A stretch of DNA of 54,971 nucleotides from positions 1-54,971 of the IMG/VR virus record IMGVR_UViG_3300024999_000135; one strand, given 5' to 3'. The position numbers were made by a program, and so were the translations under genes. The notes under the pieces are model-generated. The model did no database searches, had not been told where the DNA came from, and saw only the letters and a program-made list of their open reading frames with translations. Below, in pieces: positions 770 to 53,273 of the stretch (positions are counted from its first letter, which is position 1; each line of letters opens with the position of its first letter). Source of the stretch: a virus (lineage: Duplodnaviria; Caudoviricetes).

Positions 770-797
770 TCATGATAAAAGGAATCTTTGGTAGTAA
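770..797. repeat. dif-like 11-6-11 core site
   Basis: tcatgataaaa ggaatc tttggtagtaa. Confidence 0.6.
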
Positions 798-835
798 TTA
801 TAATAAAAAATAAATATAAAAAGGAGAAATGAATT

Positions 836-1459
836 ATGAATAAAAATTTAACTGAGATTGTCTTCATCCTTGATCGTTCAGGATCAATGGGACATTTAAC
901 TGATGACACAATAGGAGGATTTAATACTTTTATTGAAAATCAAAAGAAAGAAGATGGCGAAGCAATCTTAACAACTGTATTATTTGATCATCATTATGAA
1001 TTATTATATGATGGAATTAATCTTAAAGATGTTAATCCATTAACTAATAAAGAATACTTTGCTAGAGGTACGACAGCATTGCTAGATGCTATTGGGAAAA
1101 CTATTAATACTATTGGTAATAGATTAAATAATACTAAAGAAGAAGATAAACCTTCTAAAGTGATTATAGTTATTACTACTGATGGAGCAGAAAATGCAAG
1201 TATGGAATTTACACAACCTCAAATTAAAGAAATGATTGAACATCAAACTAATAAATATGACTGGCAATTTATGTTTTTAGGAGCAAATATTGATGCGGTA
1301 TCTACAGCACAAAGTTTTGGTATTAGTGGTCAATTTGCTGCTAATTATACTGCAAGTTCTGTAGGTACAGATGCACTTTATTCTACTTTGAGTAAATCAG
1401 TTTCTTGTGTCAGAGGTATGGGAGTATTAGAAGATAATTGGAAAGATGATTTGAAATAG
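836..1459 (+). CDS. von Willebrand factor type A (vWA) domain protein
   Basis: MIDAS motif DRSGSM, TALLDAIG, ITTDGAEN, FLGAN; good RBS. Confidence 0.9.
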   Translation: MNKNLTEIVFILDRSGSMGHLTDDTIGGFNTFIENQKKEDGEAILTTVLFDHHYELLYDGINLKDVNPLTNKEYFARGTTALLDAIGKTINTIGNRLNNTKEEDKPSKVIIVITTDGAENASMEFTQPQIKEMIEHQTNKYDWQFMFLGANIDAVSTAQSFGISGQFAANYTASSVGTDALYSTLSKSVSCVRGMGVLEDNWKDDLK

Positions 1460-1471
1460 GTTTGATTGATT

Positions 1472-1550
1472 GTACTACATATAGTGTTAATATATAATAT
1501 AATGCTATATGTAGTATGTAAATTTAGATCGAAAATATATTTGTTATTAA
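1472..1550. promoter_or_regulatory. Tandem NrdR-box-like pair followed by a dif-like core site
   Basis: CTACATATAG (1475), CTATATGTAG (1505); core tttagatcgaa aatata tttgttattaa at 1523-1550. Confidence 0.55.
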
Positions 1551-1581
1551 ATATAAAACTAATAAAAAGGAGAGAATAATC

Positions 1582-2136
1582 ATGGAAAATATTTTTAGAT
1601 GTTCTATTTGTAAAAAAGAATATAGTGGATATGATGCAGAAAAAGATTGTTTAAATGATGAAATCAATTGTCTTAATTTAAAAAGTAAATTAGATGAAAT
1701 TGTTAAAGAGTCTATTAAAATATTAACTGAAAAGTATGAAGTAAAAATAATTGAAGAAAAACATAATGTTCAAGCAAGTTCTAGTAATCATGGACAAGAC
1801 TATGAAATTTATGAATATTTTAATGGTGTAGCAGAATATAAAGGAAATATTTTTAAATTTTATACGAGTAGTGATAGTGTTGGAGATGGAAGATGTGAAC
1901 CTACATTAAATTCAGTTGAAACATTAGTAAATAATTTTATATATAAATATTTAAGAGAAAAAGAAATTGAATCTAACGAAATCATTGGTGTAGTAGAATT
2001 TTATGAAAGTGATGAAATAGATGAGAGCAATGAATATCATTATTATGATAAAGGATATAAGATTGGAAATCAAAATGTAGAAAATTTAATGTATGATTTA
2101 CGAGGGAAGAAAATTAGGATTGAAGTAATTGAGTAA
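1582..2136 (+). CDS. Hypothetical protein with N-terminal CxxC
   Basis: ORF with AGGAG RBS. Confidence 0.7.
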   Translation: MENIFRCSICKKEYSGYDAEKDCLNDEINCLNLKSKLDEIVKESIKILTEKYEVKIIEEKHNVQASSSNHGQDYEIYEYFNGVAEYKGNIFKFYTSSDSVGDGRCEPTLNSVETLVNNFIYKYLREKEIESNEIIGVVEFYESDEIDESNEYHYYDKGYKIGNQNVENLMYDLRGKKIRIEVIE

Positions 2137-2155
2137 AATTTTGCTTTTGTGATGA
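2128..2155. repeat. dif-like core site overlapping the stop codon
   Basis: attgagtaaaa ttttgc ttttgtgatga. Confidence 0.5.
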
Positions 2156-2177
2156 TTTAAGAAAGGAGTAATATTAT

Positions 2178-2360
2178 ATGATAACCATCAAGGGTAAGGC
2201 TTCGATTAATTACATAGTAAATATACCTGTTAATTCTTTCTCAGAAATTGAAGAAGATAATATGTCTATAAAAGATTCAGACGAAATGATAGGACAATTA
2301 ATATTAAAAAAATATGGGTTTATGCCAGATGATATTTGGGTAGATAAAGAAGTAAAATAA
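2178..2360 (+). CDS. Small hypothetical protein
   Basis: AAGGAG RBS; bracketed by core sites at 2128 and 2360. Confidence 0.65.
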   Translation: MITIKGKASINYIVNIPVNSFSEIEEDNMSIKDSDEMIGQLILKKYGFMPDDIWVDKEVK

Positions 2361-2405
2361 TTTAATAAATCACACATTTTATATAGATGTATTAAGGAGA
2401 TAATT

Positions 2406-2495
2406 ATGGAAGAATTTAAAGATATTTGTACAATTATATTTATTTGTTGGATTGTAGGATTAATATTTTTAAAATTAAATGGCATTATTAAATAG
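2406..2495 (+). CDS. 29-aa putative membrane peptide (MEEFKDICTIIFICWIVGLIFLKLNGIIK)
   Basis: AAGGAG RBS and hydrophobic stretch; below the ORF-track cutoff. Confidence 0.55.
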   Translation: MEEFKDICTIIFICWIVGLIFLKLNGIIK

Positions 2496-2512
2496 TAGAA
2501 AGGAATTTAAAT

Positions 2513-2797
2513 ATGAAACTTACAGAAGGTAAAATGGTTAAAGGTGGTCTAAATGATTCACCTAAAACTACTAGACCAGAAAATAAACCATCAGCACAAG
2601 GTATAAATAAAAATATGAAAACTTATATATGTTTTTATAATGAAGAATATATAATGAATCATTGTGTAAAAATTCAAGCACTAGATTATAATGATGCTGA
2701 AAATAAGTTTAGAAAACATTTAATAGAAAATGAAGTTGAATATATTGATAATGATAAATTGTATATTGAAGATATAGAGGAGATAGAAAGGATATAA
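2513..2797 (+). CDS. Hypothetical protein
   Basis: ORF with RBS. Confidence 0.65.
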   Translation: MKLTEGKMVKGGLNDSPKTTRPENKPSAQGINKNMKTYICFYNEEYIMNHCVKIQALDYNDAENKFRKHLIENEVEYIDNDKLYIEDIEEIERI

Positions 2798-2799
2798 TA

Positions 2800-3234
2800 A
2801 TGAAATTTAAAAGTAAAACACTATTAATTGATGAAGATGAAAACAATAAAATAAGAGCATGTTATCATAATTATGCAAGAATGAGTATATTAGAATTTAT
2901 GTATAGTGAATTATTTATATGGAAGAGTGTGCAAAGAAATATTATTTATGCTTTTAAAGAAATCATAGAACCAATTAAAGAAATATCTTGGTTTGTATTT
3001 AATATTATTACATTACCAGTATTACCTATTATATTATATTTTCATGCTAAAAAAGAAATAGGAAAAGCAAAGAATGAAGTGTGGGAGAATAAATGTTATA
3101 ATTGTAAATATAGAAAAAACATTCCTTTAATAAAAGGTAGAATTGAAGATATTATAGGAATAGACGAATGTATAAAGTGTAAATTAGTTGATGGGATGCC
3201 TACTGAATTTGTAGAAGATTTAATAGATAGTTAA
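2800..3234 (+). CDS. Hypothetical protein, one likely TM segment and C-terminal CxxC pairs
   Basis: Coupled to the upstream ORF; GAGGAG RBS. Confidence 0.65.
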   Translation: MKFKSKTLLIDEDENNKIRACYHNYARMSILEFMYSELFIWKSVQRNIIYAFKEIIEPIKEISWFVFNIITLPVLPIILYFHAKKEIGKAKNEVWENKCYNCKYRKNIPLIKGRIEDIIGIDECIKCKLVDGMPTEFVEDLIDS

Positions 3235-3267
3235 AATAAAAAATTAGATTTGTTACGATTTTGGGTA

Positions 3268-3296
3268 TTGACAGAATGTAAAAATAATTATATAAT
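3268..3296 (+). promoter_or_regulatory. SigA-type promoter
   Basis: TTGACA-17 nt-TATAAT. Confidence 0.85.
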
Positions 3297-3316
3297 ATGA
3301 GAGGAGAAAAATAAAT

Positions 3317-4621
3317 ATGAGTTATAATGCATACATAGTTAAAGTTAAAAACATTAGAAAACACTCTAATGCAGACAGACTTCAAGTTGCTACAGTATTT
3401 GGCAATGATGTTATTGTAGGATTAGATGTTAATGAAAATGACTTGATGATTTACTTTCCTACAGATGGTCGGCTTAATGTAGAGTATTGCAGACAGAATA
3501 AACTTCTGAGAGAAAAGGATGAGCAAGGTAATAATATTGGTGGTTATATGGATGAATCAAAATGTCACGTAACTACAATAAAATTAAGAAATGAACGCTC
3601 TGATGGATTATTAATGCCTATAAGAAGTTTAGAAAAATTCACCGATATTAACACTCTAAAAGAAGGAGATATAATCACTACTCTTAATGGAATATTAATA
3701 TGTGAAAAATATATTCCAAGAGGAAAGAATAGAAATAAAGTAGAAGGTACGCCTAAAGATAAGAAAAAGAAGAAAACTGATACAATATCTTACCCTTTCT
3801 TTGAAGAGCATAGAGATACATCACAATTGGCATATAATACAGCACAATTTAAAGAAGGTGATTTGTGTATTATTAGTTTGAAATGCCACGGGACATCAGG
3901 CAGGTCAAGTCATACTATAAAAGAAAAGAAAAAATTGCTTCCATATTGGCTGTATAAAGCACTAAAAATTATTAAAATAAATATACCAAATAAAAAGACA
4001 TGGGATTATGTTACTGGCACAAGAAGAGTAGTGTTGAAAAACTATGATGGTGGATTTTATGGTAATGATAATTTTAGAAAAGAATGGCATAAATTTTTTG
4101 TTGATAAACTTCACAAAGGAGAAACTGCATATTATGAAATAGTTGGTTATGTAAATGAAAATACAACTATTATGCCAGAATGTAATAATAAGAAAACAAA
4201 AGATAAAGAATTTATTAAACAATATGGTGAAACTACTAAATTTACATATGGATGTGGTGTAGGGCAGAATGATATTTATGTTTATAGAATGACTAAAACT
4301 GATGAAGATGGTAAAGTGGTAGAGTATTCAACAAAATATACTCAAATTAGATGTGAACAAATGGGAGTAAAATTTGTACCAGTGTTTGATAAATTCATAT
4401 TTACTACGGTTGATGATTTAATGGAAAGAGTTAATACATATGTTGATGGTACTGATCCTATTGGTAAGAATCACATTAAAGAAGGAATCGTTGTGAAAAT
4501 TGAAGATCGTGAGAAATTTACTGCATTTAAACACAAATCGTTTATGTTTAAACTTTTAGAAGGTATTATTAAAGCAGATGATATTATCGACATGGAGGAG
4601 AATGAATATATTGAAGCATAA
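3317..4621 (+). CDS. RNA ligase, Rnl2/DRB0094-like, with N-terminal OB-type domain
   Basis: N-terminal IRKHSNADRLQ; motif I LKCHGTS, YYEIVG, KEGIVVK, KHKS. Confidence 0.85.
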   Translation: MSYNAYIVKVKNIRKHSNADRLQVATVFGNDVIVGLDVNENDLMIYFPTDGRLNVEYCRQNKLLREKDEQGNNIGGYMDESKCHVTTIKLRNERSDGLLMPIRSLEKFTDINTLKEGDIITTLNGILICEKYIPRGKNRNKVEGTPKDKKKKKTDTISYPFFEEHRDTSQLAYNTAQFKEGDLCIISLKCHGTSGRSSHTIKEKKKLLPYWLYKALKIIKINIPNKKTWDYVTGTRRVVLKNYDGGFYGNDNFRKEWHKFFVDKLHKGETAYYEIVGYVNENTTIMPECNNKKTKDKEFIKQYGETTKFTYGCGVGQNDIYVYRMTKTDEDGKVVEYSTKYTQIRCEQMGVKFVPVFDKFIFTTVDDLMERVNTYVDGTDPIGKNHIKEGIVVKIEDREKFTAFKHKSFMFKLLEGIIKADDIIDMEENEYIEA

Positions 4622-5357
4622 ACAAATTGTTGATTATGAAATTATTATTTATGAAGATGAAATAATCGGTAAAGTATTTTCTAGCAAGTACGGAGAATAT
4701 AAAGTTCTTGGTGCAACTAATAAAAAAAATTATAGTAATATTTTATTTGCTTGTATTTTTATAAAAACAGGATATATAAATATATTTAAAAAACAATCAA
4801 TAATAAAAGGTAGTGTTAAAGACCCTTATTATCCTAGTATTTGCAATGTTGCATGTTATGGAATAGTTGAAAGTAATCATTTTTTATATCATAGATGGTC
4901 TGATATGATTCATAGATGTTACAATATTAATGATAAGGATTATGAATTTTATGGAAAATGTGGAGTTACAGTGTCAGATGAATGGTTATGCTTTGAGAAT
5001 TTCGTCAAAGATGCATCGTTGATAAAGGGATGGGATGAATATAAAGTTAAAAAAGGATTGTTAGAGTTAGATAAAGATAATGCTAATAAGAAAAAATATT
5101 GTTTAGAATATTGTGAATGGATACCTAGAAATAAAAATGTATATTTAGCTAATAAAAATCAAGTTAATAATCTAAGAACATTTATTGCTACAAATAAATT
5201 GAATGGTGAAGTTATTTATTCTAAAAGTATTACTCAATTTGCAAAAGACCATAAATTAGATAAGGGCAATATTTGTAAATGTTTAAAAAATAAATATAAA
5301 CAATATTTAGGTTGGGAATTTAAATACATAGAAGAAAAAGAAAGTAAATCTAATTAA
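4602..5357 (+). CDS. Putative HNH-type homing endonuclease with C-terminal NUMOD-like HTH
   Basis: LYHRWSDMIHRCY...YG..GVTVSDEWL.FENF, LELDKD, Y...CEW; GGAGGAG RBS before ATG at 4602; overlaps the ligase stop. Confidence 0.75.
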   Translation: MNILKHKQIVDYEIIIYEDEIIGKVFSSKYGEYKVLGATNKKNYSNILFACIFIKTGYINIFKKQSIIKGSVKDPYYPSICNVACYGIVESNHFLYHRWSDMIHRCYNINDKDYEFYGKCGVTVSDEWLCFENFVKDASLIKGWDEYKVKKGLLELDKDNANKKKYCLEYCEWIPRNKNVYLANKNQVNNLRTFIATNKLNGEVIYSKSITQFAKDHKLDKGNICKCLKNKYKQYLGWEFKYIEEKESKSN

Positions 5358-5443
5358 AACAATAAATTAATAATATAATTATACTTATATCTAATCATTT
5401 TTACATATTAGATATAAGTATAATATAAAAAAGGAGATTATAT

Positions 5444-5800
5444 ATGTGTGATTTAGATAAAAGATTCAAAGAAGTCCAAGAATTAAGAAATGAATTAAAT
5501 ATGTATCATACAGAATTGCAAAGTAATCTAAGTATTGTTGATAAAGAAATAGTAGATTTAGAACATTATATTGAATTTTATAATTTTAATGCATCTCAAG
5601 GATTTAAAGCATATAAAATGTTACAAGAAAAATTAATTAAAAGAAGAGAACTTAAAAAATCAATTGAAAAATGTAATATTATTTGGAACGGAAATATACG
5701 AGATTTTGCAATAGGAAAAAGTATAGATAAGCAAATGAAAAATATTGAAAATAAAAAATATACTGCAAGGATACTTAAAGAATTATTTGATAATCAATAA
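5444..5800 (+). CDS. Hypothetical coiled-coil phage protein
   Basis: ORF with RBS. Confidence 0.7.
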   Translation: MCDLDKRFKEVQELRNELNMYHTELQSNLSIVDKEIVDLEHYIEFYNFNASQGFKAYKMLQEKLIKRRELKKSIEKCNIIWNGNIRDFAIGKSIDKQMKNIENKKYTARILKELFDNQ

Positions 5801-5828
5801 GAGGAAGAAAGGAGAATTTTAAAATTAT

Positions 5829-6755
5829 ATGACTAAATTAATTTGCCTTGTAGGTTTACCAGCATCAGGTAAATCATATTACGCAAAGCAATTATCAGAA
5901 CAATACAATGCAAAAATATATTCATCAGATAATCTTAGAGAAGAATTATTTGGAGATGTAAATGAATGTAGCAGAAATGAAGAATTATTTAAAGAATTAT
6001 ACAAAAGGGTTAAAAATAGTTTATCTAATAAAGAAAATGTTATATTAGATTCAACTAATTTGTCATATAAGAAACGTAAAGCAATATTAGAAGAAATGAA
6101 AAAATATAATTGTGAGAATATATGTTATTTAATTGCAACACCTTATGAGAAATGTTTAGAACAAAATTTACATAGGGAAAGAAAAGTACCTGAATATGTA
6201 ATTAAGAAAATGTATATGAATATTAATATTCCTCAGACGTATGAGGGATGGAATGAAATACATATAATATATAATAAAGATAATATGATGTTTAATATAA
6301 GTGAATTATTAAATTCTTTAGATTTTATTAATCAAGATAATAAGTATCACACATTAACTATTGGTGAACATTGTAGAAAATGTGCTGATAATATTAAAAG
6401 TAAAATGTATTATAATAAAATAGTTAATGAAAATTCTGAAAATTTTTATTTAGCAGGTTTGCTTCATGATATAGGAAAACATTTTTGTAAATCATTTAAA
6501 AATAGTAAAGGTGAAATAACTGAAAATGCTACATATTATCAACATCATTTAGTATCTGCTTATGATAGTTTATTTTATTTGAAAGAATTAGGGATGAGTA
6601 AAGATGATATATTAGAAATTACAAATTTAATACAATGGCATATGAGATTATTTAATGAAACTGAAAAGAGTAGGAAGAAATTTATTGATATGGTCGGGCA
6701 AGAATTTTATAATGATCTATTATTGTTGCATGAAAGTGATATAAATGCAAAATAA
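5829..6755 (+). CDS. Polynucleotide kinase (AAA_33) fused to an HD phosphoesterase
   Basis: Walker A GLPASGKS, SSD.LR, DSTNL; HD motif LLHDIGK with HH, H and D residues. Confidence 0.9.
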   Translation: MTKLICLVGLPASGKSYYAKQLSEQYNAKIYSSDNLREELFGDVNECSRNEELFKELYKRVKNSLSNKENVILDSTNLSYKKRKAILEEMKKYNCENICYLIATPYEKCLEQNLHRERKVPEYVIKKMYMNINIPQTYEGWNEIHIIYNKDNMMFNISELLNSLDFINQDNKYHTLTIGEHCRKCADNIKSKMYYNKIVNENSENFYLAGLLHDIGKHFCKSFKNSKGEITENATYYQHHLVSAYDSLFYLKELGMSKDDILEITNLIQWHMRLFNETEKSRKKFIDMVGQEFYNDLLLLHESDINAK

Positions 6756-6758
6756 ATG

Positions 6759-6787
6759 TTGACAAGTAAGTAACAGAATGTTAAAAT
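6759..6787 (+). promoter_or_regulatory. SigA-type promoter with extended -10
   Basis: TTGACA-17 nt-TAAAAT with TG. Confidence 0.8.
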
Positions 6788-6820
6788 AATAATAATTAAT
6801 AAAGATGGGAGGAATCTTAA

Positions 6821-7866
6821 ATAAAAACAAACATATTTATACCAAAAACCATCAAAGTAGGTTTTCAAAATCGTTCTGATACATATACTCAAAAATTAGC
6901 CTACGTGATTTACTATGATCAAAAAGGTAAATTAAGGAAGGAAGTTAGCTGGAACGGCTGGAGGGACAAAAGTATTGAACCACAAGAATTCTCAAATGAA
7001 CCAACTTCAGGATTTGTATTAAATAAAAAGGTTGGTGATTATAAAAGTTCTTGGAGTCATCGACATGCTTACTGTAGAGTATATGACCCTCGCAATTTTG
7101 AGATAGAAATATCAATAGAAAATTTACTATATATTTTGGAAAATAATTCATCAATTAAAGGAAAAGGATTAGAAGGATTATTTGTTTATGGTTGGGATGA
7201 TAAGAATCTCATATTAATTCCTACAGATTCACCTGACTATAAAGAAATGATGGAACTTAATGATTTAAGACATGAAAAGAAGAAATTTGATAGTAAAAAT
7301 ATGATTATTGGAGCAACATACAAAACCGACCAAAATTATGAATTAATATATTTAGGTAGATTTTATGAAAGCAACGAAGATAATAAAGAAACTAAATCAT
7401 ATTTCTTCTATGATAGAGATAATAAATGGAGTAAGATTACTATTATTAAATCTCTAACAGGAAATATTATTGATGTAGTAAATGAAAATTGTGTTGAAGA
7501 CTATGCAGAATTAATGGATGAATTATTAAAAAGTAGTTATTATTCTACTAGAGAACAAAAATATGATGAATATAAAGATTATACATTAGAAGAATTTAAA
7601 AAGAGTTTAGATAAACGCAATGGATTTTATAGTAGTAGATATTATATAGAAATTAATGATAAATTAGAAAGATATTATATAAAAAGGAATATAGTTATTG
7701 GAGATATAATTCAGAAACTAAATATAGTGTATATACAATGAATAGAGGTCATAAAGATGAAAGAATTATTGATGAAAAATCAATAGAATATGTTTATAAT
7801 CAAATAAAACCAAAATATTTAGTAACTTATGATAAAAATAAAAATATAATAAAAGAGTGGAGGTAA
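6821..7866 (+). CDS. Conserved phage protein; probable ATA start at 6821 and apparent frameshift at the A-run 7681-7685
   Basis: GGGAGGA RBS 7 nt before an in-frame ATA; the alternative frame after 7681 reads ...KEYSYWRY...IIKEWR* to 7866, abutting the next gene. Confidence 0.65.
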
Positions 7867-7870
7867 TATT

Positions 7871-8287
7871 ATGTCAAAACAAAACATAAATGATGAGAAG
7901 ATTCTACAATTGAAAGCACAAATTAAGGAGAAGAAAGGTAAATTAAAAGGTAAAAAGAGATTTACACCTGTCACGAATTGTAGTTTAGAATTAAGAGGGA
8001 TTAGATATAATTTAAATGTATTAAATAAAGAACAATTAACTACATTATTATTAGAATTAAATTTGTTTAAAATGTCGGCAATTGATTTGGATTTAGAAGA
8101 TGAATACATTGTAAGTGGATTTAGCGTTGATGAATGGATTAAAGATATTAAGGCAAAGTTAGAAATTATAGTTATGATGGAAGAAGAAAGAAAATTGCAA
8201 GAATTGGAACAGAAATTGGAATATATGTTGTCTAATGAGAAGAGGATTGAATTAGAGATTAATGAGATAGAATCAATGATTAAATAA
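7871..8287 (+). CDS. Hypothetical protein
   Basis: GGAGG RBS; coupled to the upstream gene. Confidence 0.75.
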   Translation: MSKQNINDEKILQLKAQIKEKKGKLKGKKRFTPVTNCSLELRGIRYNLNVLNKEQLTTLLLELNLFKMSAIDLDLEDEYIVSGFSVDEWIKDIKAKLEIIVMMEEERKLQELEQKLEYMLSNEKRIELEINEIESMIK

Positions 8288-8306
8288 CATTAAAAGGAGA
8301 AAATAT

Positions 8307-8687
8307 ATGTCAACTAGAAAACAATTATATTCAGATGAATTTTATAAATTAGCATTTGCAAATTTCCCTACATCAGATAAACATAATAATTCTGAATATT
8401 ATATTCATTTAGAAATAATTAAAGGACAATATGATTCAGTAAATATTGCCGAAGAATTAGAAAAAACAATAAAAGGTAATTTCTATTATAGAGATTATAC
8501 AAAGGATGGATTACCTTTTGTTGAAGAAGGAAATATTTACTGGTCTGAATTTTGGTTTCAATATAAAAATGATGCAATTAACTTTGCAAATAGTTATAAA
8601 GGTGTTTGTAAAGGGAATTGGGAAGAAGGATATAAGGAATTTATGCTGGATTGCAATAGGAAGAGGAATAATGATTATAAATCATAA
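8307..8687 (+). CDS. Hypothetical protein
   Basis: AAGGAG RBS. Confidence 0.7.
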   Translation: MSTRKQLYSDEFYKLAFANFPTSDKHNNSEYYIHLEIIKGQYDSVNIAEELEKTIKGNFYYRDYTKDGLPFVEEGNIYWSEFWFQYKNDAINFANSYKGVCKGNWEEGYKEFMLDCNRKRNNDYKS

Positions 8688-8715
8688 AAATTAAGAATTA
8701 GAGAAAAATGTGTAT

Positions 8716-8783
8716 TCACAAACCCTTGATTTTATTGGGTTTGTGAAAACCAAAATCATTATAAAAGACGCATTTGGAAGCAA
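8716..8783. repeat. Composite element: ACAAACCCTT palindrome plus dif-like core
   Basis: cacaaacccttgattttattgggtttgtg, then tcattataaaa gacgca tttggaagcaa. Confidence 0.7.
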
Positions 8784-9010
8784 AATAAAAGGAGGAATAA
8801 TTGTATGGTAATGAAACCAGAAGAATTTGATAATTTGTATCTATCGTTTTTAAATGGCAATGAATTATCTAGAGAAGATGTTAAAAATTTATTTGATACT
8901 TTTGGAGAATTAATAAATGAATATAAAGAATTATTAGAAGGATGTAAGAGATTATCATCATGTAATTTATAATAATTAAAAATAAAAATAAAAAAATTAG
9001 GAGGAATAAT

Positions 9011-9889
9011 ATGATTATTTTAACGCATTCAGATTATGACGGGATTTCAGCAGGAATTGTAGGTAAAGTAGTATACCCTAATGCAAAAGTAGAATTCTGT
9101 AATTATGATGATATTAATGAAAAGGTATTAGAATACTTAGGTAAGGATACTATCATGATCACTGATATATCAGTTAATGAAGAAGTTGCAGAAAAGATTG
9201 AAAAGAATAATTCTGAATATAATGATTGTGCATTATTATTTGATCATCATAAAACTGCAAAATGGTTAACTAAATATAATTGGGTTACATTTGCAGATGA
9301 TAAATGTGGTGCTAAAGTATTTTATGAATGGTTATTAAATTATTGCATGGAATTAAAACTTGATTGGTTATCATACGAACTAACAAAATATGTTGATTTA
9401 ATTACATATACTCAAGATTATGACCTTTGGTATCATAAATATCCTATGAGTAAAAAGTTAAATATGCTTGCTTATGAATATGGATTTGAAAGATTTATGA
9501 ATAGATTTTTAGATAATCCAGATTGTACCTTAACTAAATCAGAAGAATTAATATTAGAATTAGCAGAAGAACGTAAAATGAAATTTATCGAAGAACAAAA
9601 GAAAAATATGAAATTGTATAAAGATAATCAGAATAAAACTGTTGCTGTATTTTTATCTACACAACATGCAGGAGAAATTAGAGATTTTATCAATGATGAT
9701 AATATTGATTATTATTTATTCTTTAGTTTAAATAAAGACATTGCTAGTTTAAGAACTAAAGGAGAAGTAGACTGTTCTGAGGTTGCGAAGAAGTTTGGAG
9801 GAGGCGGGCATATGAAAGCTGCTGGATTTCAATTTAAATTTGATTTAGATAGTTTTGTGAGGAAATATGGTTTGGTTGAAAGATTATAG
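9011..9889 (+). CDS. DHH/DHHA1 family phosphoesterase (NrnB/oligoribonuclease-like)
   Basis: HSDYDG, ITD, FDHH, SLR and GGGGHMKAAG motifs. Confidence 0.9.
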   Translation: MIILTHSDYDGISAGIVGKVVYPNAKVEFCNYDDINEKVLEYLGKDTIMITDISVNEEVAEKIEKNNSEYNDCALLFDHHKTAKWLTKYNWVTFADDKCGAKVFYEWLLNYCMELKLDWLSYELTKYVDLITYTQDYDLWYHKYPMSKKLNMLAYEYGFERFMNRFLDNPDCTLTKSEELILELAEERKMKFIEEQKKNMKLYKDNQNKTVAVFLSTQHAGEIRDFINDDNIDYYLFFSLNKDIASLRTKGEVDCSEVAKKFGGGGHMKAAGFQFKFDLDSFVRKYGLVERL

Positions 9890-9918
9890 TTGACATGGAG
9901 TAAAAAGAATGTTAAAAT
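9890..9918 (+). promoter_or_regulatory. SigA-type promoter
   Basis: TTGACA-17 nt-TAAAAT with TG. Confidence 0.75.
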
Positions 9919-9953
9919 AAATAAAAACAAAAATATTTAGAAAAATCCAATTT

Positions 9954-10020
9954 TACAAACCCTTGAAATATAAGGGTTTGTAGTACCTAATATTTGAACA
10001 AAATCACAGTTTGGTTATGA
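9954..10020. repeat. Composite element: palindrome plus dif-like core
   Basis: tacaaacccttgaaatataagggtttgta, then tttgaacaaaa tcacag tttggttatga. Confidence 0.7.
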
Positions 10021-10053
10021 TATTATAATAATATAAATAAATAACATTAGGAG

Positions 10054-10100
10054 AACTTGCAAGTTAACATAGGATAGCTATCCCTCCTAGACGTAGGAGG
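10054..10100 (+). promoter_or_regulatory. Structured leader; hairpin sequesters the RBS of the GIY-YIG gene
   Basis: aacttgcaagtt, ggatagctatcc and cctccta-gacg-taggagg. Confidence 0.65.
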
Positions 10101-10110
10101 TAATATAGAG

Positions 10111-11028: not shown

Positions 11029-11048
11029 AATAAAGGAGGTTATATTTT

Positions 11049-11271
11049 ATGCGTAAAAAGAAAATTATTGAAATAAAAAGAAATAATGACGGAGTTGTAA
11101 AAGAAGTAAGGCTTGATGGGAATAAAACATTCACTAAATTAAATACAGTATTAAATATGGCTAAAAATAATGAAATAGAAAATGTTCATGTATCTACTTC
11201 ATTAAAAAAACAATGAATATTTAAGGTCTAATCCAAATAAAAACAAAAAAGATAATTTAAATAATATTTAA
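11049..11271 (+). pseudogene. DUF3892-like protein, frameshifted at A7 (11204-11210)
   Basis: MRKKKII...NVHVSTSL continues in another frame as NEYLRSNPNKNKKDNL. Confidence 0.65.
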
Positions 11272-11273
11272 GT

Positions 11274-11451
11274 AATTAATAAAATCTTCGTTTTATCATG
11301 ATATAGGTAAAATTACGCAATATCGTAATAATATTAATTTTACCTATATCAATACCAACAAACCCTTAATATATAAGGATTTAAGAGCAATTATATACAT
11401 AAAATAAAAGTATAATATAAATATTAACACCAAAGAAAGATTTGGTTCAAA
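11274..11451. repeat. Two dif-like cores (11274-11301, 11424-11451) enclosing an inverted repeat and an ACAAACCCTT motif
   Basis: aattaataaaa tcttcg ttttatcatga; gatataggtaaaatta...taattttacctatatc; caaacccttaatatataagg; ttaacaccaaa gaaaga tttggttcaaa. Confidence 0.55.
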
Positions 11452-11455
11452 CTTC

Positions 11456-11797: not shown

Positions 11798-11798
11798 A

Positions 11799-42450: not shown

Positions 42451-45400
42451 TTGAAAGTTGTTAAAAGAAATGGAACAATAGTTAGTTTTGATGAGAGTAG
42501 AATTATTAATGCAATAGAAAATGCTATGAGAGAAACAAAGATTGGATTAGACAATGAAATAAGTCAATTAATTGCTAAACAAATTAAAAATCAAAACATT
42601 GATGTAATTCAAGTAGAACAAATACAAGATATGGTTGAAGAATTACTTATGAATACTGACAGAAAAGACGTTGCAAAAACATATATATTATATAGAAATA
42701 ATAGAAATAAAACAAGAAATAATAAAAATAATGGATTATTATCTGAAGAATTTTTAAGTAAATATAAACATAGACCATCTCCTATGAATCAATTAGGTAG
42801 TTTTGTTTATTATAGAACTTATTCTAGATGGTTGCCAGAAGAACAAAGAAGAGAATATTGGTGGGAAACTGTAAAAAGAGCAGTTGAATATAATTGTAGT
42901 CTTGTACCAACATCAAGAGAAGAAGCAGAAAAATTATATGATAATATTTATAATTTACGTCAATTTTTAAGTGGTAGAACATTATATATAGGTGGAACAT
43001 TGGTATCAGAAAAATTTCCTACTTCTAATTATAATTGTTCATTTTCAGTAGTTGATAATTTTGAAGTATTTAAAGATGCTTTTTATCTTTTAATGATTGG
43101 TTCGGGATTTGGATTTCGTATTTTGAAAAGCGATGTTTTAAAATTGCCTAGAGTAAAATCGAATGTGGAAATTATACATAAAGAATATACATCAATATCA
43201 AAAGATAAACGAGAAGATAATACATCTATTCAATTTGTAAATAATAATATGATTAAAATTACAGTAGGAGATAGTAAAGGTGGATGGGTTCAGGCATTAG
43301 ATTATTATCTAAAAATTTTATGGGATAAAGATTTTACTGATATTGAAACAATTATATTTATTTATGATCATGTTAGACCAAAAGGAGAAAGATTAAAAAC
43401 ATTTGGTGGCACTGCTTCAGGATATGAGAGTCTAAAATCAATGTTTACTAAAGTAAGTAAAATAATTAAAAACGAAGGAATTAATCAAAATAAAGAAAGA
43501 ATTAAACTTAAACCAATTAATTGTTTGGACATATTAAATGCTATTGGTGAAAATGTTGTAATTGGTGGTGTACGGAGAACTAGCGAAATAGCATTAATTA
43601 ATTCAGATGACGAGGAATGTATTAAAGCAAAAAGCAATCTTTATAAACAAACAATCAATGGTAAATGGGAAATAGATACAGAAATGACACATAGACAAAT
43701 GAGTAATAATTCTATTTACTATAAAGAGAAACCTTCTAGAGAACAGATACATTGGCAAATTGAACAAATGAGATATTCTGGTGAACCAGCTTTTGTTAAT
43801 GAAATTGCAGGAAATAAACGTAGACCAAATTTTAATGGTGTTAACCCATGTGCGGAAATTTTACTTGATTCTAATGGATTATGCAATTTAACTACTGTGA
43901 ATGTTTTTGCATTTGTTGAAAATGGTAAATTGAATATTGAAGAACTTTTAAAAGCACAAAGATTATCAGCGAGATCAGGATATAGAATGACATGTGTAGA
44001 ATTAGAACTTCCAAAATGGGATACAGTACAACAAAGAGACAAACTTACTGGTTGTTCATTAACAGGTTGGCAAGATATGGTTAATGCAATATCAATGTCT
44101 AAAAATGAAGAAATTGAATTATTGAAAAAATTACGCCAAGTGGCTCATGAAGAAATTAATACATATTCACAAGAATTGGGATTAACAGAATCATTGTTAA
44201 TTACTACCTGTAAACCAGAAGGATGTTGGACTTTAGATCATATTAGAACATTGGATAATGGTTTACTTAGACTTGATGAAATTAATGAAAACATAGAGAT
44301 GGAAAATGGATTTAAAGAGATCGATGGATATACTAAAAATGGTTATAAAATAACTAAAACTTATTCAAATGATATTAAAGATATTTTAAAGATAAAATTA
44401 AAAAATGGCAGAGAATTAAAAATTACTAATTCACATCCTATGTCTGTTAATGGAGAATGGATTGAAGCACAAAACATTAAAATTGGAAATATTATTGATT
44501 ATAAATTAGGAGAATATAAAAATAATAAGCATTATGAATTAATAGATGTTACTGTTGATGAATTTAGAAGTGATATAAGAGACTACAAAACTCCAAAATA
44601 CATAAATGAAGATGTTTCATGGTTAATTGGAGCGTATATGGCAAATGGTTCATTTACAACAAATGATAGAATTAAATTTCATTGTCAACATCTTAATGTT
44701 CATGAAAAAGTACAAAGAATATGGTTAGAACAATTTGGTGTAGAAACTAATATAGTAAAATCAACAGATAGGGATTCTTACACTCAGGATTTTAGAAGTA
44801 CAAAAATTATAAAATGGTTGAATTTTAATTGTTTAGATAAAGAATATAATTATAAATTGGGGATAATACCAAAAGCAATAAGACAATCATCGGTAAATGA
44901 TATAATTAATTTTATTGTTGGATATGCAGATAATGATGGATGTTTTTATAATAATTCTTTTTGTATAGATAGTATAAATGAACCATTAATGAGACATATG
45001 CAAGAAGTAGGAGAAGCAGTAGGTATTTCTTTTGGAATTAGTATTAACTCAAAAAGAAAAAGTTTTGGAAGAAATCCAGTTTATAAAATACATTTATCAA
45101 GAAGTTTTTCTAATGAAGATGTTATAAATTATATTAATCAAATTTCAGTGAAGGCACAAGACAATCCTATTATAAAATCTCATAATATTCGTTCTACTAA
45201 TCCTTATAAAGTTGTAGAAATAAGTGAAATTAAACAACAAAAAACATATGATATTGAGATTGATACTGAACATTGGTATTATCAAGGTGGTTTAAAATCG
45301 CATAATACACTTAGTCAATTACCAGGAGTTACATCTGGTGTTCATTATTCTGAATCTGAATGGTTTGTTAGAAGAGTAAGAATCAATTCTCACGATCCTT

Positions 45401-48539: not shown

Positions 48540-48605
48540 CATAAACCCTTGATTTTATTGACTTTCTAGCACTTAATATTGTTCCAAAGAGAAATTTTGT
48601 CATGA
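48540..48605. repeat. Composite element: degenerate palindrome plus dif-like core (inverted)
   Basis: ataaacccttgattttattgacttt, then attgttccaaa gagaaa ttttgtcatga. Confidence 0.65.
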
Positions 48606-48853: not shown

Positions 48854-49945
48854 ATGAATCTGATTAAAGACATTCACATATCAAAAAGTTTTTATTGGTT
48901 AGGTAGTAGTCTTGAAAAATGTTTTGATTGTAAATATTGCAGAGCAAAACCTAAGCAACCATGTAGTTATGATGTATTACCATCAAAAATAAATAAAAAT
49001 TTTATTAATTTACCTGTAGTTATTAATCTATTCTATGGCGATCCTTTACTTCAAATTGAAAACACAAAAAGATATTTAGAGTTGCTTGAGCAAGTAAATC
49101 ATAAAGCACCTGCAATAATAATTACTAAAGGAAATTTACATCAATTAGGAGAATTAAATTATAATTTAGACATACATATTGCATTAAGTACAATAGGAAA
49201 AAATAGTTGGGTAGATAATATAGGACATAATAATTTCATAAATAATTTAAAGTATATTGAAAGCAATAAAAACAGTAAAATAAAATTTTCATGTGAATTT
49301 AGACCAATTATGTATCAAATAAATGATGATAAAGAAACAATAGATAATGTGTTTAAATTATGTTCAGAATACAATTTACCTATAGGGTATAGTGGTTTGC
49401 AAGGCTCACCTGATTTAGTTGAATACTGGAAAGAGAATAATATAGATTTAAAACCTTTTCCCAATTATGATTTTAGTATTAAAAAACCAATATCTTATGA
49501 ATGTGAACAAATAATTAAAGAAACATCTAGTAAATATAATGTACCAATATTTAAGAAAACATCTTGTTTAATTAGTTATAGTCATAATTTAGAACGAGAT
49601 TATAATGCACACTACTATAGACCAAATGAAATGAATTGTACTGAGTGCTTAATGAAAAATAAATGTACGGAATATAAAAATAAACAACATACAAATAAAG
49701 AATTATTAAAACATATTATACCATTTGATTTTCAAATTGAATTTAAAACTAAACATAAATGTTTACTACATAATTCATGTCCACATCCTCATTCTGATTG
49801 CACAAATATTAATGGTAATTTAATTATCATAGATAAGAAAATAACTACTGCTGATGTTAGAGTTATAAAATGGTTAACTGGATATACAGTTGTAGCACCA
49901 TTTGTAGAATCAAGTTATTTAAGTGTTGAATGGGATGAGAGGTAA
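48854..49945 (+). CDS. Radical-SAM-like Fe-S protein with an atypical CxxCxxC motif
   Basis: CFDCKYC, YGDP, IITKG, FRPI; extra C-terminal Cys clusters. Confidence 0.6.
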   Translation: MNLIKDIHISKSFYWLGSSLEKCFDCKYCRAKPKQPCSYDVLPSKINKNFINLPVVINLFYGDPLLQIENTKRYLELLEQVNHKAPAIIITKGNLHQLGELNYNLDIHIALSTIGKNSWVDNIGHNNFINNLKYIESNKNSKIKFSCEFRPIMYQINDDKETIDNVFKLCSEYNLPIGYSGLQGSPDLVEYWKENNIDLKPFPNYDFSIKKPISYECEQIIKETSSKYNVPIFKKTSCLISYSHNLERDYNAHYYRPNEMNCTECLMKNKCTEYKNKQHTNKELLKHIIPFDFQIEFKTKHKCLLHNSCPHPHSDCTNINGNLIIIDKKITTADVRVIKWLTGYTVVAPFVESSYLSVEWDER

Positions 49946-49969
49946 AATAAAATTTAAGATTTATTATGT
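49942..49969. repeat. dif-like core site
   Basis: gtaaaataaaa tttaag atttattatgt. Confidence 0.45.
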
Positions 49970-50003
49970 ATAAGAAATACTAATATAAAAGGAGGTTATA
50001 ATT

Positions 50004-50864
50004 ATTCAATTTAATAAAGAAAATTTAATAAAATCTCCACTTAACTACGTCGGAGGAAAATACAAATTACTTCCTCAAATTCTACCATTATTCCCTGAAG
50101 ATATAGATACATTTATTGATTTATTTTGTGGTGGAGCAAATGTAGCAGTTAATGTAAAAGCAAATAAAATATATGGAACAGATATTCAAAAAGAAGTTAT
50201 TCAATTCTTAGACCATTGCGTACATAATAAATCTGAAGAAATGTTAAATGTAATTAATAAATTAGTTGATAAATATCAATTAACTAAAACAAATAAAGAA
50301 GGATATTTAAAAATTAGACAAGAGTATAATAATGGCAATAAATCATGGGATATGTTTTATACTCTTATATGTTATTCTTTTAATAATCAAATAAGATTCA
50401 ATTCAAAAGGTGAGTATAATATGCCTTTTGGAAAAGACCGAAGTAGTTTTAATCCTACTTTAGAACAAAAATTTATTAGATTCATAGATTGTTTAAAGAA
50501 TATAAATATAAAATTTATACATAGTGATTTCAGAAAATTAAAAATTAATAACTTAATTACAAATGATTTTGTGTACATTGATCCTCCATACCTAATAACT
50601 TGTGCTTCATATAATGAAAATGGTGGATGGAAAGAAAAAGATGAAATAGACTTATTAAATCTACTTGATAAATTAAATCATAATAGTGTTAAGTTTGCTT
50701 TATCAAATGTGCTTGAAAGTAAAGGTAAGAGCAATGACTTATTAAAAGAATGGTCTAAGAAATATAATATACATAGATTGAATGTTAAATATGGTAACGC
50801 TAATTATCAAAGAAAAGAAAAAGATGATAGTACAACTTTAGAAGTTTTAATTACAAATTATTAA
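50004..50864 (+). CDS. Dam/D12-class DNA adenine methyltransferase with ATT start
   Basis: Frame upstream of ATG 50241 encodes SPLNYVGGK and DLFCGG (SAM binding); DPPY; AAGGAGG RBS before ATT. Confidence 0.9.
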   Translation: MQFNKENLIKSPLNYVGGKYKLLPQILPLFPEDIDTFIDLFCGGANVAVNVKANKIYGTDIQKEVIQFLDHCVHNKSEEMLNVINKLVDKYQLTKTNKEGYLKIRQEYNNGNKSWDMFYTLICYSFNNQIRFNSKGEYNMPFGKDRSSFNPTLEQKFIRFIDCLKNINIKFIHSDFRKLKINNLITNDFVYIDPPYLITCASYNENGGWKEKDEIDLLNLLDKLNHNSVKFALSNVLESKGKSNDLLKEWSKKYNIHRLNVKYGNANYQRKEKDDSTTLEVLITNY

Positions 50865-50872: not shown

Positions 50873-50900
50873 ACATCACAAAATTTAGTATTTATTCAAT
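50873..50900. repeat. dif-like core site
   Basis: acatcacaaaa tttagt atttattcaat. Confidence 0.5.
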
Positions 50901-51305: not shown

Positions 51306-51332
51306 AATAAATAAAAGGAGAAAAATATACAT

Positions 51333-51854
51333 ATGAAAAACAAAACAAATTGTAAAAAGTGTCATTGGAATGGTAACGATTCTTTTTGTTGGACAACACC
51401 ACCTGAGATATGTAATCATTTCAAACCTAAATACAAAGTATATCTAGCAAATCCTTATGGATTCTCAAAACAACAAAAAGAAGAATTATTACCTAAATTA
51501 GTATCTAAAATTGAATCTTTAGGATATGAAGTATGGGAACCGTTTGAAAGAAATAACCAAGTAGACTTTTCAAACGAAAATTGGGCATATGACGTAGGTC
51601 AAGCAGATAAAAATGACGTAGAAAACTGTGATATTGTTTTTGCTGTTGTTAATGGCACTCCACCAGATGAAGGAGTGATGATTGAATTAGGAATGGCAAT
51701 TGCTTTAAATAAGAAAGTATATTTATTTAGAGATGATTTTAGAAAATGTACAGATTCAGGCAAATATCCATTAAATTTAATGTTGTTTACAGGATTACCT
51801 AAAGATGATTGGGAGAAATATTATTTTACTTCAATGGAAGAAATAGATTTTTAA
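51333..51854 (+). CDS. Nucleoside 2-deoxyribosyltransferase family protein
   Basis: VYLANP.GF, D...V..CD, DEGVMIELGMA, NLML. Confidence 0.88.
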   Translation: MKNKTNCKKCHWNGNDSFCWTTPPEICNHFKPKYKVYLANPYGFSKQQKEELLPKLVSKIESLGYEVWEPFERNNQVDFSNENWAYDVGQADKNDVENCDIVFAVVNGTPPDEGVMIELGMAIALNKKVYLFRDDFRKCTDSGKYPLNLMLFTGLPKDDWEKYYFTSMEEIDF

Positions 51855-51878
51855 TAATAAATATAAAAGGAGATAATT

Positions 51879-52133
51879 ATGACAGTACAAGAAATATTAT
51901 TACAATTAAATAAAGAAAAAGATATAATTACAAAAGAAATATTAACTAAAGAAAAAGAATTACAAGAAATAAATATTACAATAGCAAATTTAACAAAAAT
52001 AATAAATAATGTTGAATTAATTTGCAATAAATGCAATGGTACAGGTAAAATATTTAAACGTGCTTGTGCGGAAGATGATGGTGATTATTATATGTGTAAT
52101 AATTGCAATGGGAAAGGTAGAATTAAATTATAA
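51879..52133 (+). CDS. CxxCxGxG zinc-finger protein, similar in layout to 32928
   Basis: CNKCNGTG and CNNCNGKG after a coiled coil. Confidence 0.7.
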   Translation: MTVQEILLQLNKEKDIITKEILTKEKELQEINITIANLTKIINNVELICNKCNGTGKIFKRACAEDDGDYYMCNNCNGKGRIKL

Positions 52134-52159
52134 ATACATAAAGGATGATAATATATATG

Positions 52160-52372
52160 AAAGGTTTATATCAAAAATACATAATTCAAAAAGCAGACGG
52201 AACACCTATAGATCTTAATGCAGATTATTTTGTATTAAGATTAGATACGGATAAATATGCTAGAGAAGCATTAAAATTTTATGGGAGTGCTATTTATCAA
52301 GACAATCCTGAACTTGCATATGATATTTTTAGAAAATTAAATTGTTATTGGGAGAAGGAGCAATTAATATGA
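52160..52372 (+). CDS. Conserved small phage protein
   Basis: GLYQKY.I.KADG...YFVLRLDTD..AR.AL..Y. Confidence 0.65.
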   Translation, partial: KGLYQKYIIQKADGTPIDLNADYFVLRLDTDKYAREALKFYGSAIYQDNPELAYDIFRKLNCYWEKEQLI

Positions 52373-52566
52373 CAAAACCACTCATAGAATTAATAACTTG
52401 CAATGCAGGTGATTGGAGTGTATTAAGAGTTAATTTAGGTGAAGATTTTGAATTTCAAGGTCATTCAATACCTGATCATGAATGGATTAGATTATTAGAA
52501 TTGTTAGGTTATAAAGTTGAAGAAAGAAATATTAATGATGAAGATATGGAATATGGAAATTATTAA
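52369..52566 (+). CDS. Hypothetical protein
   Basis: AAGGAG RBS before ATG at 52369. Confidence 0.6.
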   Translation: MTKPLIELITCNAGDWSVLRVNLGEDFEFQGHSIPDHEWIRLLELLGYKVEERNINDEDMEYGNY

Positions 52567-52588
52567 TAGATAAAAAGGAGAAATTACA

Positions 52589-52774
52589 ATAGAAAAACTT
52601 CTAAAATCTTTAACAGAGCAAGAAAAACAAATATTAAAAATTGCTACTAATGCAATATATTTTAATGATAATTCAGATTATTTATCTGCTCTATGGGATA
52701 TTGTGAACGAAATTTCAGGTTCAAAAATTGAATATTGTGACAGTAAATTATTTAATTTATTAAATTATGATTAA
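52589..52774 (+). CDS. 61-aa hypothetical protein with ATA start, missed by the ORF track
   Basis: AAGGAG 8 nt before ATA; the open frame exactly fills the gap between neighbours. Confidence 0.6.
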   Translation: MEKLLKSLTEQEKQILKIATNAIYFNDNSDYLSALWDIVNEISGSKIEYCDSKLFNLLNYD

Positions 52775-52788
52775 AGGAGAATGAATTT

Positions 52789-53001
52789 ATGGCAAAGATA
52801 ATATGTTGTGATAAATGTAAAAGTACAAATATAAATAAAATTGGTGAAGAAAAAAGAAATCAACATACAACTAAAGAAGAAGGATGGTTTGGTCTTGGAG
52901 GTAGTTGGGACGTTATATATCATTCACATTATAATTTATATGGTAAATATAAATGTAACGAATGTGGTTATGAATTTAGTGAGTTAGAATATAGTCATTA
53001 A
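52789..53001 (+). CDS. Zinc-ribbon protein
   Basis: CDKC and CNECG. Confidence 0.65.
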   Translation: MAKIICCDKCKSTNINKIGEEKRNQHTTKEEGWFGLGGSWDVIYHSHYNLYGKYKCNECGYEFSELEYSH

Positions 53002-53192
53002 TAAAAGGAGAATTATTATATGAGAAGAAAAGTTAAAGCAAAAATTAAAGGTAATTTTAGTGGAATTGCTATTGTTATTTTAGATAGCAATGGTAATATC
53101 GAAGAAATAGATGAAGTATTAGAAATTGATGAAGTGGATGATTGTGAAATTATTGAAGAAATATATCAAGTTGGTGGATAATAACTTAAAAT

Positions 53193-53273
53193 ATACTAGA
53201 TATAGTGTGTAAATGAGAGTTAAACCACTATATCTAGTATTAAAATCATTACAAAAGTTCGAATTGGTGTTGA
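53193..53273. promoter_or_regulatory. Tandem NrdR-box-like pair followed by a dif-like core
   Basis: CTAGATATAG (53196), CTATATCTAG (53228); tcattacaaaa gttcga attggtgttga at 53246-53273. Confidence 0.6.

Follow-up and report, generated by a model that had tools for sequence, protein, structure and literature searches.

A family of dyad boxes in a phage clade known only from metagenomes may form portable stem-loop-plus-box cassettes at the heads of single-gene units

We found that the window, a 54,971-base virus record from IMG/VR (IMGVR_UViG_3300024999_000135) that was analyzed whole and is judged 38% complete, carries a family of short dyad sequences, called boxes here, that approximate AAWA-TYATNAYMAAA-N6-TTTKRTNATRA-TWTT. 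Most of the boxes lie between a stop codon and the next ribosome-binding site (RBS), and they stand at the edges of single-gene units that related phages have shuffled; the placement and the bracketing of single genes had been noted in an earlier reading of the sequence without database searches (the sequence-only reading). That reading took the boxes for sites at which a tyrosine recombinase exchanges accessory genes. Our best reading, which we hold tentatively and at a little less than an even chance, is that the boxes are parts of portable intergenic control cassettes, similar to the early promoter and stem-loop composites (PeSLs) of T4-like phages, and that these cassettes would double as patches of homology for gene shuffling. 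Large phages keep swapping small accessory genes, and the mechanism is little known outside of the T4 group. The lineage described here, whose clade is known only from metagenomes, may represent a second solution of the PeSL kind, in which portable stem-loop-plus-box joints head single-gene units. Either way, the motif is a handle for delimiting gene units and recombination joints in the clade.

The G+C content of the window is 25%, and nearly all of its open reading frames (ORFs) are on the + strand. Genes were called with a simple ORF caller written for this analysis. We retrieved related loci (L-numbers) from related virus contigs by protein-guided searches, and five records were fetched whole. 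One relative, G006, is 151.8 kb and 82% complete. The larger set of boxes used below, 103 in all, comes from seven records: the window and G001-G006. The polymerase region had no megablast match among phage records, so there is no close cultured phage. The best protein match to the DnaE-type polymerase was 35% identical, from Brevibacillus phage Sundance; the phage is unrelated to T4. The window and G006 are collinear from 3.3 to 52.6 kb, with about half of the window genes lacking a counterpart in G006. Relative to L008, the order of single genes is scrambled.

The box family is real. The sequences quoted for the 17 coordinates in the sequence-only reading are present at all 17. The more conserved arm, TCATNAYAAAA, occurs 12 times in the window (both strands, 7 of the 12 intergenic) compared to 2.99 ± 1.71 times after dinucleotide shuffling, and none of 100 shuffles reached 12. 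An unbiased motif search in intergenic DNA trimmed of RBSs found the right half of the sites as the fourth motif; the first three were a sigma-70 promoter and two parts of a stem-loop module (C-type, below). We also trained a 34-nt matrix on the 17 sites and counted hits with a score of 12 or more. Because the window supplied the training sites, hits within it are circular. On the + strand of related records there were 16 hits in 23.2 kb of intergenic DNA, compared to 15 hits in 176.7 kb of coding DNA. In G006, 32 hits fell in noncoding DNA, compared to 1.5 ± 1.3 in 100 mononucleotide shuffles (largest 5) and 3.7 in 20 shuffles that preserved neighbors (largest 6). G006 as a whole has 45 matches that score 12 or more, mostly in regions of small genes. 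The replication operon of the window (16.9-30 kb), said earlier to contain no sites, had a single hit, in coding DNA, with a score of 10.6 at position 17814, and the earlier statement holds.

When each of the 17 sites was scored with a matrix from which it had been left out, 12 scored 9 or more. The weak ones are those at 1523, 36440/36441, 36615, 41165 and 49942. The caution that the weakest copies could be chance matches stands for single weak copies; for the family as a whole, chance is refuted. Two of the sites are probably real despite their low scores: the site at 1523 because an A-type stem-loop precedes it, and the site at 49942 because a near-perfect dyad precedes the orthologue of Dam in G006. 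The boxes and stem-loops in the window are as follows.

719-763, + strand: A-type stem-loop ACTATATGTAGTA...TACTACATATAGT, -19.8 kcal/mol, z -4.1; L008 has a homologous module between other genes
770-797: dyad box with strong left arm, after A-type stem-loop; leave-one-out 18.2
1472-1517, + strand: A-type stem-loop with flipped arm order, -21.5 kcal/mol, z -3.4
1523-1550: weak dyad box after A-type stem-loop; leave-one-out 4.9
2128-2155: dyad box with strong right arm; left arm overlaps stop codon, Shine-Dalgarno (SD) sequence 7 nt on; leave-one-out 13.3
2360-2387: moderate dyad box; leave-one-out 11.3
3231-3258: added box-like site, 9 nt before the sigma-70 -35 hexamer at 3268; score 12.4
8714-8747, + strand: C-type stem-loop TTCACAAACCC...GGGTTTGTGAA, z -3.0
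8756-8783: dyad box with strong left arm, after C-type stem-loop; leave-one-out 12.1
9953-9983, + strand: C-type stem-loop, z -2.5
9993-10020: dyad box with D-type left arm and L-type right arm, after C-type stem-loop; leave-one-out 17.9
11274-11301: dyad box opening a 290-nt noncoding block conserved in G004 and G006; leave-one-out 12.3
11424-11451: dyad box with D-type right arm, 4 nt before a TTGTCA -35 hexamer; leave-one-out 13.2
31505-31532: added box-like site at the 3' border of a TnpB unit; score 13.2; homology with L002 stops at ~31515
35949-35976: moderate dyad box abutting the SD; leave-one-out 9.8
36440-36468: weak site, register uncertain by 1 nt; leave-one-out -12.5 in the +1 register
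36615-36642: dyad box with strong right arm; leave-one-out 7.3, matrix score 14.6
37047-37075, + strand: C-type stem-loop, z -1.8
37086-37113: dyad box with two good arms, after C-type stem-loop; leave-one-out 19.3
41127-41153, + strand: weakened C-type stem-loop, z +0.5
41165-41175: left arm only; a TnpB gene and its RBS begin inside the box; leave-one-out 5.8
48578-48605: dyad box with strong right arm, after a degenerate C-type stem-loop; leave-one-out 9.0
49942-49969: weak box before Dam; leave-one-out 3.6
50873-50900: moderate dyad box after Dam; leave-one-out 10.2
53193-53240, + strand: A-type stem-loop, -23 kcal/mol, z -4.7
53246-53273: dyad box with the best score of the 17, after A-type stem-loop; leave-one-out 22.5

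Several of these sites have counterparts elsewhere. The layout at 3231, with a box before a -35 hexamer, recurs in G006 and G004. The center of the box at 11424 (GAAAGA) is kept in four genomes. The gene that follows 36440 has an orthologue in G006 with a box upstream, and Dam orthologues are preceded by the near-perfect dyad in G006 and by a stem-loop plus box in G002. Two boxes lie in the conserved 290-nt noncoding block (11217-11506), together with a C-type stem-loop and a long stem-loop at ~11302-11350. The block matched no Rfam family, and it might encode a small RNA.

The boxes appear to be bipartite sites in double-stranded DNA. A logo of 74 boxes extends over ~34 bp: an A-rich flank, then T1, Y2, A3, two positions without preference, A6, Y7, M8 and AAA, followed by six free positions and the mirror image. 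Positions 1, 2 and 6-11 of the dyad mirror positions 18-23, 27 and 28, and the 6-nt center is not conserved; few sites share a center, even when the two flank one unit. The sites had been described as imperfect palindromes. There is a dyad, but it is weak, with only 4-8 of 11 possible Watson-Crick pairs compared to a background mean of ~3.4, and 8% of all positions in the window reach 6 of 11 pairs. The description of one conserved arm and one looser arm, occurring in both orientations, was borne out. In noncoding DNA, the conserved arm is found three times forward and four times reversed in the window, and seven and eight times, respectively, in G006. There are two types of arm, L (TCATGAYAAAA) and D (TTTGMAYAAAA), and their combinations among the 103 boxes include 22 LL, 12 LD and 10 DL.

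The two arms of a box vary independently. Among the 74 boxes there was no covariation between arms (odds ratios 0.7-1.6, p of 0.63 or more, at positions 2/27, 5/24, 7/22 and 8/21). For example, the odds ratio was 1.29 at 7/22 (p = 0.63), 1.14 at 8/21 (p = 1.0) and 0.80 at 2/27 (p = 0.81), and p was 1.0 at 5/24. Positions 3-5 pair at the background level. The mispairs (43 G-T and 29 A-C) are in a ratio near that expected from base composition. Each arm, taken separately, fits one degenerate consensus. A hairpin would demand covariation, and two half-sites that independently fit one consensus are what a protein dimer would contact. We therefore read the box as a putative binding site for a protein in double-stranded DNA, with dimer-like half-sites, and not as a hairpin.

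The boxes have a preferred position relative to signals for expression of the next gene. An SD-like motif starts 0-14 nt after the box in 49 of the 103 boxes, most often at 5-9 nt, compared to 8.7% of random positions (n = 5000); in 12 of the 103 the SD is only 0-4 nt away. At least six boxes are instead 4-9 nt before a TTGACA or TTGTCA -35 hexamer (3231 and 11424 in the window, 16990 in G004, 63606 and 75870 in G006, and 518 in G005). The window also has ten canonical sigma-70 promoters (TTGACA-17-T(A/G)TAAT), which occur as separate repeated cassettes; one of the promoter scans covered positions 1-20000 only. Three RNA sequencing runs contained almost none of the sequence words of window 600-10500.

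A recognizable stem-loop precedes 29 of 74 boxes, leaving 45 without one. The A-type stem-loops (14 of the 29) have stems of 13-18 bp that are variants of ACTAYATATRTAGTA, with folding energies of -19 to -23 kcal/mol and z from -3.4 to -4.7. The 15 C-type stem-loops have the stem ACAAACCC...GGGTTTGT, in which 74.8% of cells are paired compared to 24-53% in slid controls. Covariation in the C-type stem was not above that in shuffles, and RNAalifold gave no consensus structure for 18 C-type copies.

Whole modules are found between different genes in different genomes. The segments 8664-8765 and 720-798 of the window match 14833-14933 and 20078-20156 of L008, respectively, and in each case the flanking genes are unrelated on both sides. 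Between paralogous modules, 60-80 nt are 77-84% identical, and the homology stops at position 10-12 of the box. The downstream gene is homologous only from box offset 26-28 or beyond. Based on these edges, the center and the looser arm of the box belong to neither side. The shared homology of stem-loop plus arm is 70-100 nt and extends beyond a 28-bp core. A pattern scan of viral contigs for stem-loop plus arm had no match, a negative of little weight because L004 should have matched.

Conversely, what precedes a given orthologous gene varies by genome: it can be a box, with or without a stem-loop, or a sigma-70 promoter, or none of these. We saw such interchange for the genes at 1582, 8805, 16501, 37134 and 11799, and for Dam. 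Interchange before orthologues is the behavior of an optional cassette, putatively one for expression or punctuation.

We propose that the boxes function in control cassettes. A cassette would consist, in order, of the stop codon, often a stem-loop of 13-18 bp from one of two families, the box, a few nucleotides, and the SD or -35 hexamer of the next unit. The box, a dyad of ~34 bp with a variable 6-bp center, would bind a dimer of a sequence-specific protein or two related subunits. Transcripts from upstream would be kept out of the unit by the stem-loop, and the box would set how the next unit is expressed, perhaps by acting as an operator or roadblock or as a factor-dependent start. The ~45 copies of the box in G006 are all in line with transcription. 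Because so many similar copies lie in line, they would provide short homology to the general recombination system of the phage, and single genes could be swapped, gained or lost at the joints. If a regulator binds the box, it would have a large regulon in a phage without a recognizable sigma factor.

By analogy, the closest described system is the PeSL of T4-like phages: the same logic, it seems, built with a different part. PeSLs are described as composites of a stem-loop and an early promoter, preceded by an AT-rich region, between a stop codon and the SD (Arbiol et al. 2010, PMC2839356), present at ~50 per genome among variable genes, where they serve as exchange points (PMC2839356; Comeau et al. 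2014, PMC4122927). Promoter activity, terminator activity and mini-circles are reported for PeSLs (PMC2839356; PMC4122927). The cassettes in our phage are also small intergenic composites with a stem-loop, extending from the stop codon to the next SD. Their number is similar (~50 copies per genome for PeSLs, 45 in G006), and both kinds cluster where genes are small and variable, with few copies in core operons. Both flank single ORFans and are at borders of insertions, deletions and replacements between related phages. Here, as well, the same cassette is found between unrelated genes. In contrast to PeSLs, the partner of the stem-loop is a dyad box in either orientation and not a sigma-70 promoter; canonical sigma-70 cassettes are separate in this phage.

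Several observations weigh against the proposal that the boxes are protein-bound control elements spread by general recombination. A candidate for the binding protein is lacking among the proteins searched. None of 10 small conserved proteins matched a helix-turn-helix family in Pfam; they gave only a sub-threshold WYL match and zinc-finger-like matches. Searches of five records per family for HU/IHF and for sigma-70 regions 2 and 4 were also negative. The box has no sigma-70-like -35/-10 pair in a fixed orientation, and it is often too near the SD for a transcript to start between them. In a comparison of G006 to L046 (99.2% identical over 8210 nt), identity starts between the arms of a box whose center is CAGTAG in one and CTACTG in the other. 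Centers that are reverse complements of each other are more frequent than expected: 10 pairs among the 103 boxes, compared to 1.7 ± 1.3 (largest 6) in 2000 shuffles of letters within centers. Some of these pairs are in homologous modules (CATAAA in L004 and TTTATG in G004; GCCTGA in G004 and TCAGGC in G006). Lastly, an orthologous trio of boxes (window 11424, L001 11687 and L008 18825) has compensatory changes in the inner arms. The flipped centers and the trio hint that the arms may pair at some stage, for example during replication. It is also possible that a protein turns the center over.

An alternative, which we think unlikely, is that the box is a directional promoter of a later class, recognized by host RNA polymerase with a phage factor, and that the stem-loop is the terminator of the preceding unit. 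This would account for boxes that replace sigma-70 promoters before the same genes and that lie close before the SD, and some D-L copies resemble TTGAAY-16-(TG)NATGAT. PeSLs likewise join a terminator to a promoter (PMC2839356). However, nearly all genes are on one strand, and a directional signal should not flip when genes run one way; the L-D and D-L arrangements (12 and 10) weaken this interpretation. In addition, the 12 boxes with an SD 0-4 nt away leave no room for a start, some boxes are upstream of a complete sigma-70 promoter, and no sigma factor was found in the five records searched.

We regard as quite unlikely the proposal that the boxes are core sites for a site-specific recombinase, either host XerC/D, as at pdif sites, or a phage serine recombinase, that joins units at the 6-bp center. 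If true, site-specific recombination would move single accessory genes through a large phage of virulent type, a counterpart of pdif modules or integron cassettes, and the boxes would be the first example of such a cassette system in a phage. The sequence-only reading had called the boxes dif-like 11-6-11 sites. The geometry, the unequal arms and the two orientations hold, as does the presence of boxes at borders of shuffled units; the arms are not dif-like and the mechanism did not find support. The start of identity between the arms in G006 and L046 and the excess of flipped centers are consistent with recombination at the center. On the other hand, the centers are heterogeneous and the homology shared by modules is 70-100 nt rather than the 28-bp core. 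Homology of the downstream gene starts past the right arm (offset 26-28) and not in the center. Boxes are also tied to the next SD or -35 hexamer, and they trade places with sigma-70 promoters before the same gene.

The absence of a tyrosine recombinase from the window, noted earlier, was confirmed, as PF00589 had no match over the cut-off. A search beyond the window had been suggested; PF00589 was also below the cut-off in 10 related records, one of them the 151.8-kb relative that is 82% complete, whereas all 14 control genomes were detected. Genes for large serine recombinases are present in two of five related records. The protein in G006 is 505 amino acids, has Resolvase, Recombinase and zinc-ribbon domains, and is encoded near the end of the record; G009 has a 541-amino-acid open frame with a Resolvase domain. 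Large serine recombinases of this integrase type act on much longer sites. The gene for the 505-amino-acid protein is at 463-1980 of L042 (143.7-145.3 kb of G006, - strand), in the only stretch of the relative with several genes on the - strand. This lineage could be temperate, or it could have an integrative element.

Breakpoints between genomes mostly lie away from boxes. Comparing the window to G006, 7 junctions with boxes were broken, none was kept and 10 were uninformative; among other junctions, 31 were broken and 9 were kept. Boxes were not enriched at broken junctions (Fisher p = 0.32). Since 31 of the 38 broken junctions have no box, most breaks do not need one. Of three junctions that could be placed finely, only the one between G006 and L046 fell between the arms, as exchange at the 6-nt spacers would predict. 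Between G004 and L043 (99.7% identical over 15,149 nt), identity increases by degrees within a methyltransferase-like ORF. Between G005 and L003 (97.7% over 6019 nt), the break is in a leader downstream of a sigma-70 promoter, and the replaced segment has its other end at a box. The earlier inference that a tyrosine recombinase exchanges the cassettes found no support on three counts: no gene in 11 records, heterogeneous centers, and broken junctions that mostly lack boxes.

Compared to known recombination sites, the boxes have the general form but not the details. Like dif and the pdif sites of Acinetobacter plasmids, they are 28 bp in an 11-6-11 arrangement, with one better-kept arm and a variable center, and flank gene modules. 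The sites of pdif modules alternate in orientation; the boxes do not alternate along the window, no recombinase was found, and boxes are tied to the SD or promoter. The inner arms of dif, as printed in PMC3025954, are ATAA and TTAT, in contrast to AAA(A) and TTT(T) in the boxes. When the D-type right arm is read 2 nt outward (TTATGCAAACT), it matches the right arm of Bacillus subtilis dif at 10 of 11 positions (PMC3025954). The match requires the 2-nt shift in register, after which the left arm does not fit, and by a rough estimate it is at about chance level for the number of comparisons made.

Two other types of site were compared. Integron attC sites are also imperfect inverted repeats between promoterless, co-oriented cassettes. 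An attC site works as a folded single strand, and its structure is conserved while its sequence is not. The boxes differ in having no covariation between arms, and no integron integrase was found (PF00589 was negative in the 11 records). The boxes also resemble the crossover sites of small serine recombinases (hix, gix and res site I), which are 26-28 bp dyads made of outer hexamers and inner A/T tracts; recombination at those sites requires identical central dinucleotides. The centers of the boxes vary, and the only Resolvase-domain proteins in relatives are the large ones of 505-541 amino acids.

It is improbable, in our view, that the site acts as a hairpin of RNA or single-stranded DNA, that is, as a signal for processing, stability, termination or priming. 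Small inversions are typical of hairpin loops in chloroplast spacers, and the flipped centers would fit this; so would the compensatory changes in the trio and the true stem-loop just upstream of many boxes. However, the lack of arm covariation in 74 boxes and the background pairing at positions 3-5 are not expected of a hairpin, and G-U pairs are not above the expectation from composition. Minimum-energy folds of the modules gave no consistent hairpin at the box, and there was no Rfam match. Scans of the window with Rfam and for tRNAs found nothing.

We are similarly doubtful that the stem-loop plus box is a small selfish element, like a repetitive extragenic palindrome (REP) or a miniature inverted-repeat transposable element (MITE), with no role for the phage. 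Modules are discrete units of 70-100 nt that can be present or absent before the same gene, and a TnpB unit with a C-type stem-loop and half a box is inserted relative to G006. A fragment of a Y1 transposase is present in one of five records, but there is no intact copy in G006, even though that record is 82% complete. The modules have neither terminal repeats nor target duplications, their placement relative to the SD or -35 hexamer is fixed, and 45 of 74 boxes have no stem-loop. Finally, chance matches in AT-rich spacers are a very improbable source of the family, for despite the weak palindromy (4-8 of 11 pairs) and the low scores of five of the 17 sites, the boxes outnumber those in shuffled DNA 4- to 20-fold and those in coding DNA ~8-fold, in independent genomes.

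We also compared the boxes to other known signals. A sigma-70 promoter inside the box was tried by eye in several registers but given up, since the arms occur in either order and transcription would begin within the SD. Sites for IHF, CodY, LexA, Spo0A, ParB and CRP were dropped on the basis of comparison by eye to consensus sequences only.

Pfam matches in the window include NAPRTase, a weak vWA match, RNA ligase, a kinase/HD protein, a DHH phosphoesterase, a GIY-YIG homing endonuclease, an ATP-dependent DNA ligase, Macro and PARP domains, two TnpB genes, a class II ribonucleotide reductase with an intein, dUTPase and Dam methylase. The protein encoded at 48854-49945 had no relatives in viral contigs.

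Both TnpB genes are near box-like sequences. The gene within 30201-31515 has OrfB_IS605 and Cas12f-like TNB domains and is followed by ~115 nt of noncoding DNA that is richer in G+C and is conserved with L002 to ~31515; we take this stretch to be a putative omega-RNA scaffold. In the window and in L002, the flank just past the TnpB element resembles the center and right arm of a box, and the elements are at different places. The second TnpB gene, with its C-type stem-loop and half box (41095-42425), is an insertion relative to G006. At the corresponding place in G006, a small Cys-rich gene runs directly into ribonucleotide reductase. Two free-standing genes resembling homing endonucleases are also absent from the matching places in G006: one at 4578-5357 (a sub-threshold NUMOD-like match of the I-HmuI type) and one at 10111-11028 (GIY-YIG plus NUMOD).

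Other features of the window were noted as well. The frame for Dam (49995-50864, D12 class) is open just after a strong SD and has no ATG, GTG or TTG there; judging from the frame, the gene may use an unusual start codon. A leader at 16414-16440, after the sigma-70 promoter at 16385, contains three tandem purine repeats (AAGGAGT/GGAGTAA), and the orthologue in G001 of the gene behind it has a similar purine-rich leader. NAPRTase, a Macro domain protein and a PARP/WGR protein (6-704 and 13928-15586) make up a tool kit for NAD and ADP-ribose. The intein of the class II ribonucleotide reductase (44235-45318; Intein_splicing and HINT domains) is a stretch that is lacking in L011-L016. Between two replication genes, positions 18010-18045 contain a run of TTAATTA units and an adjoining 14-bp palindrome.

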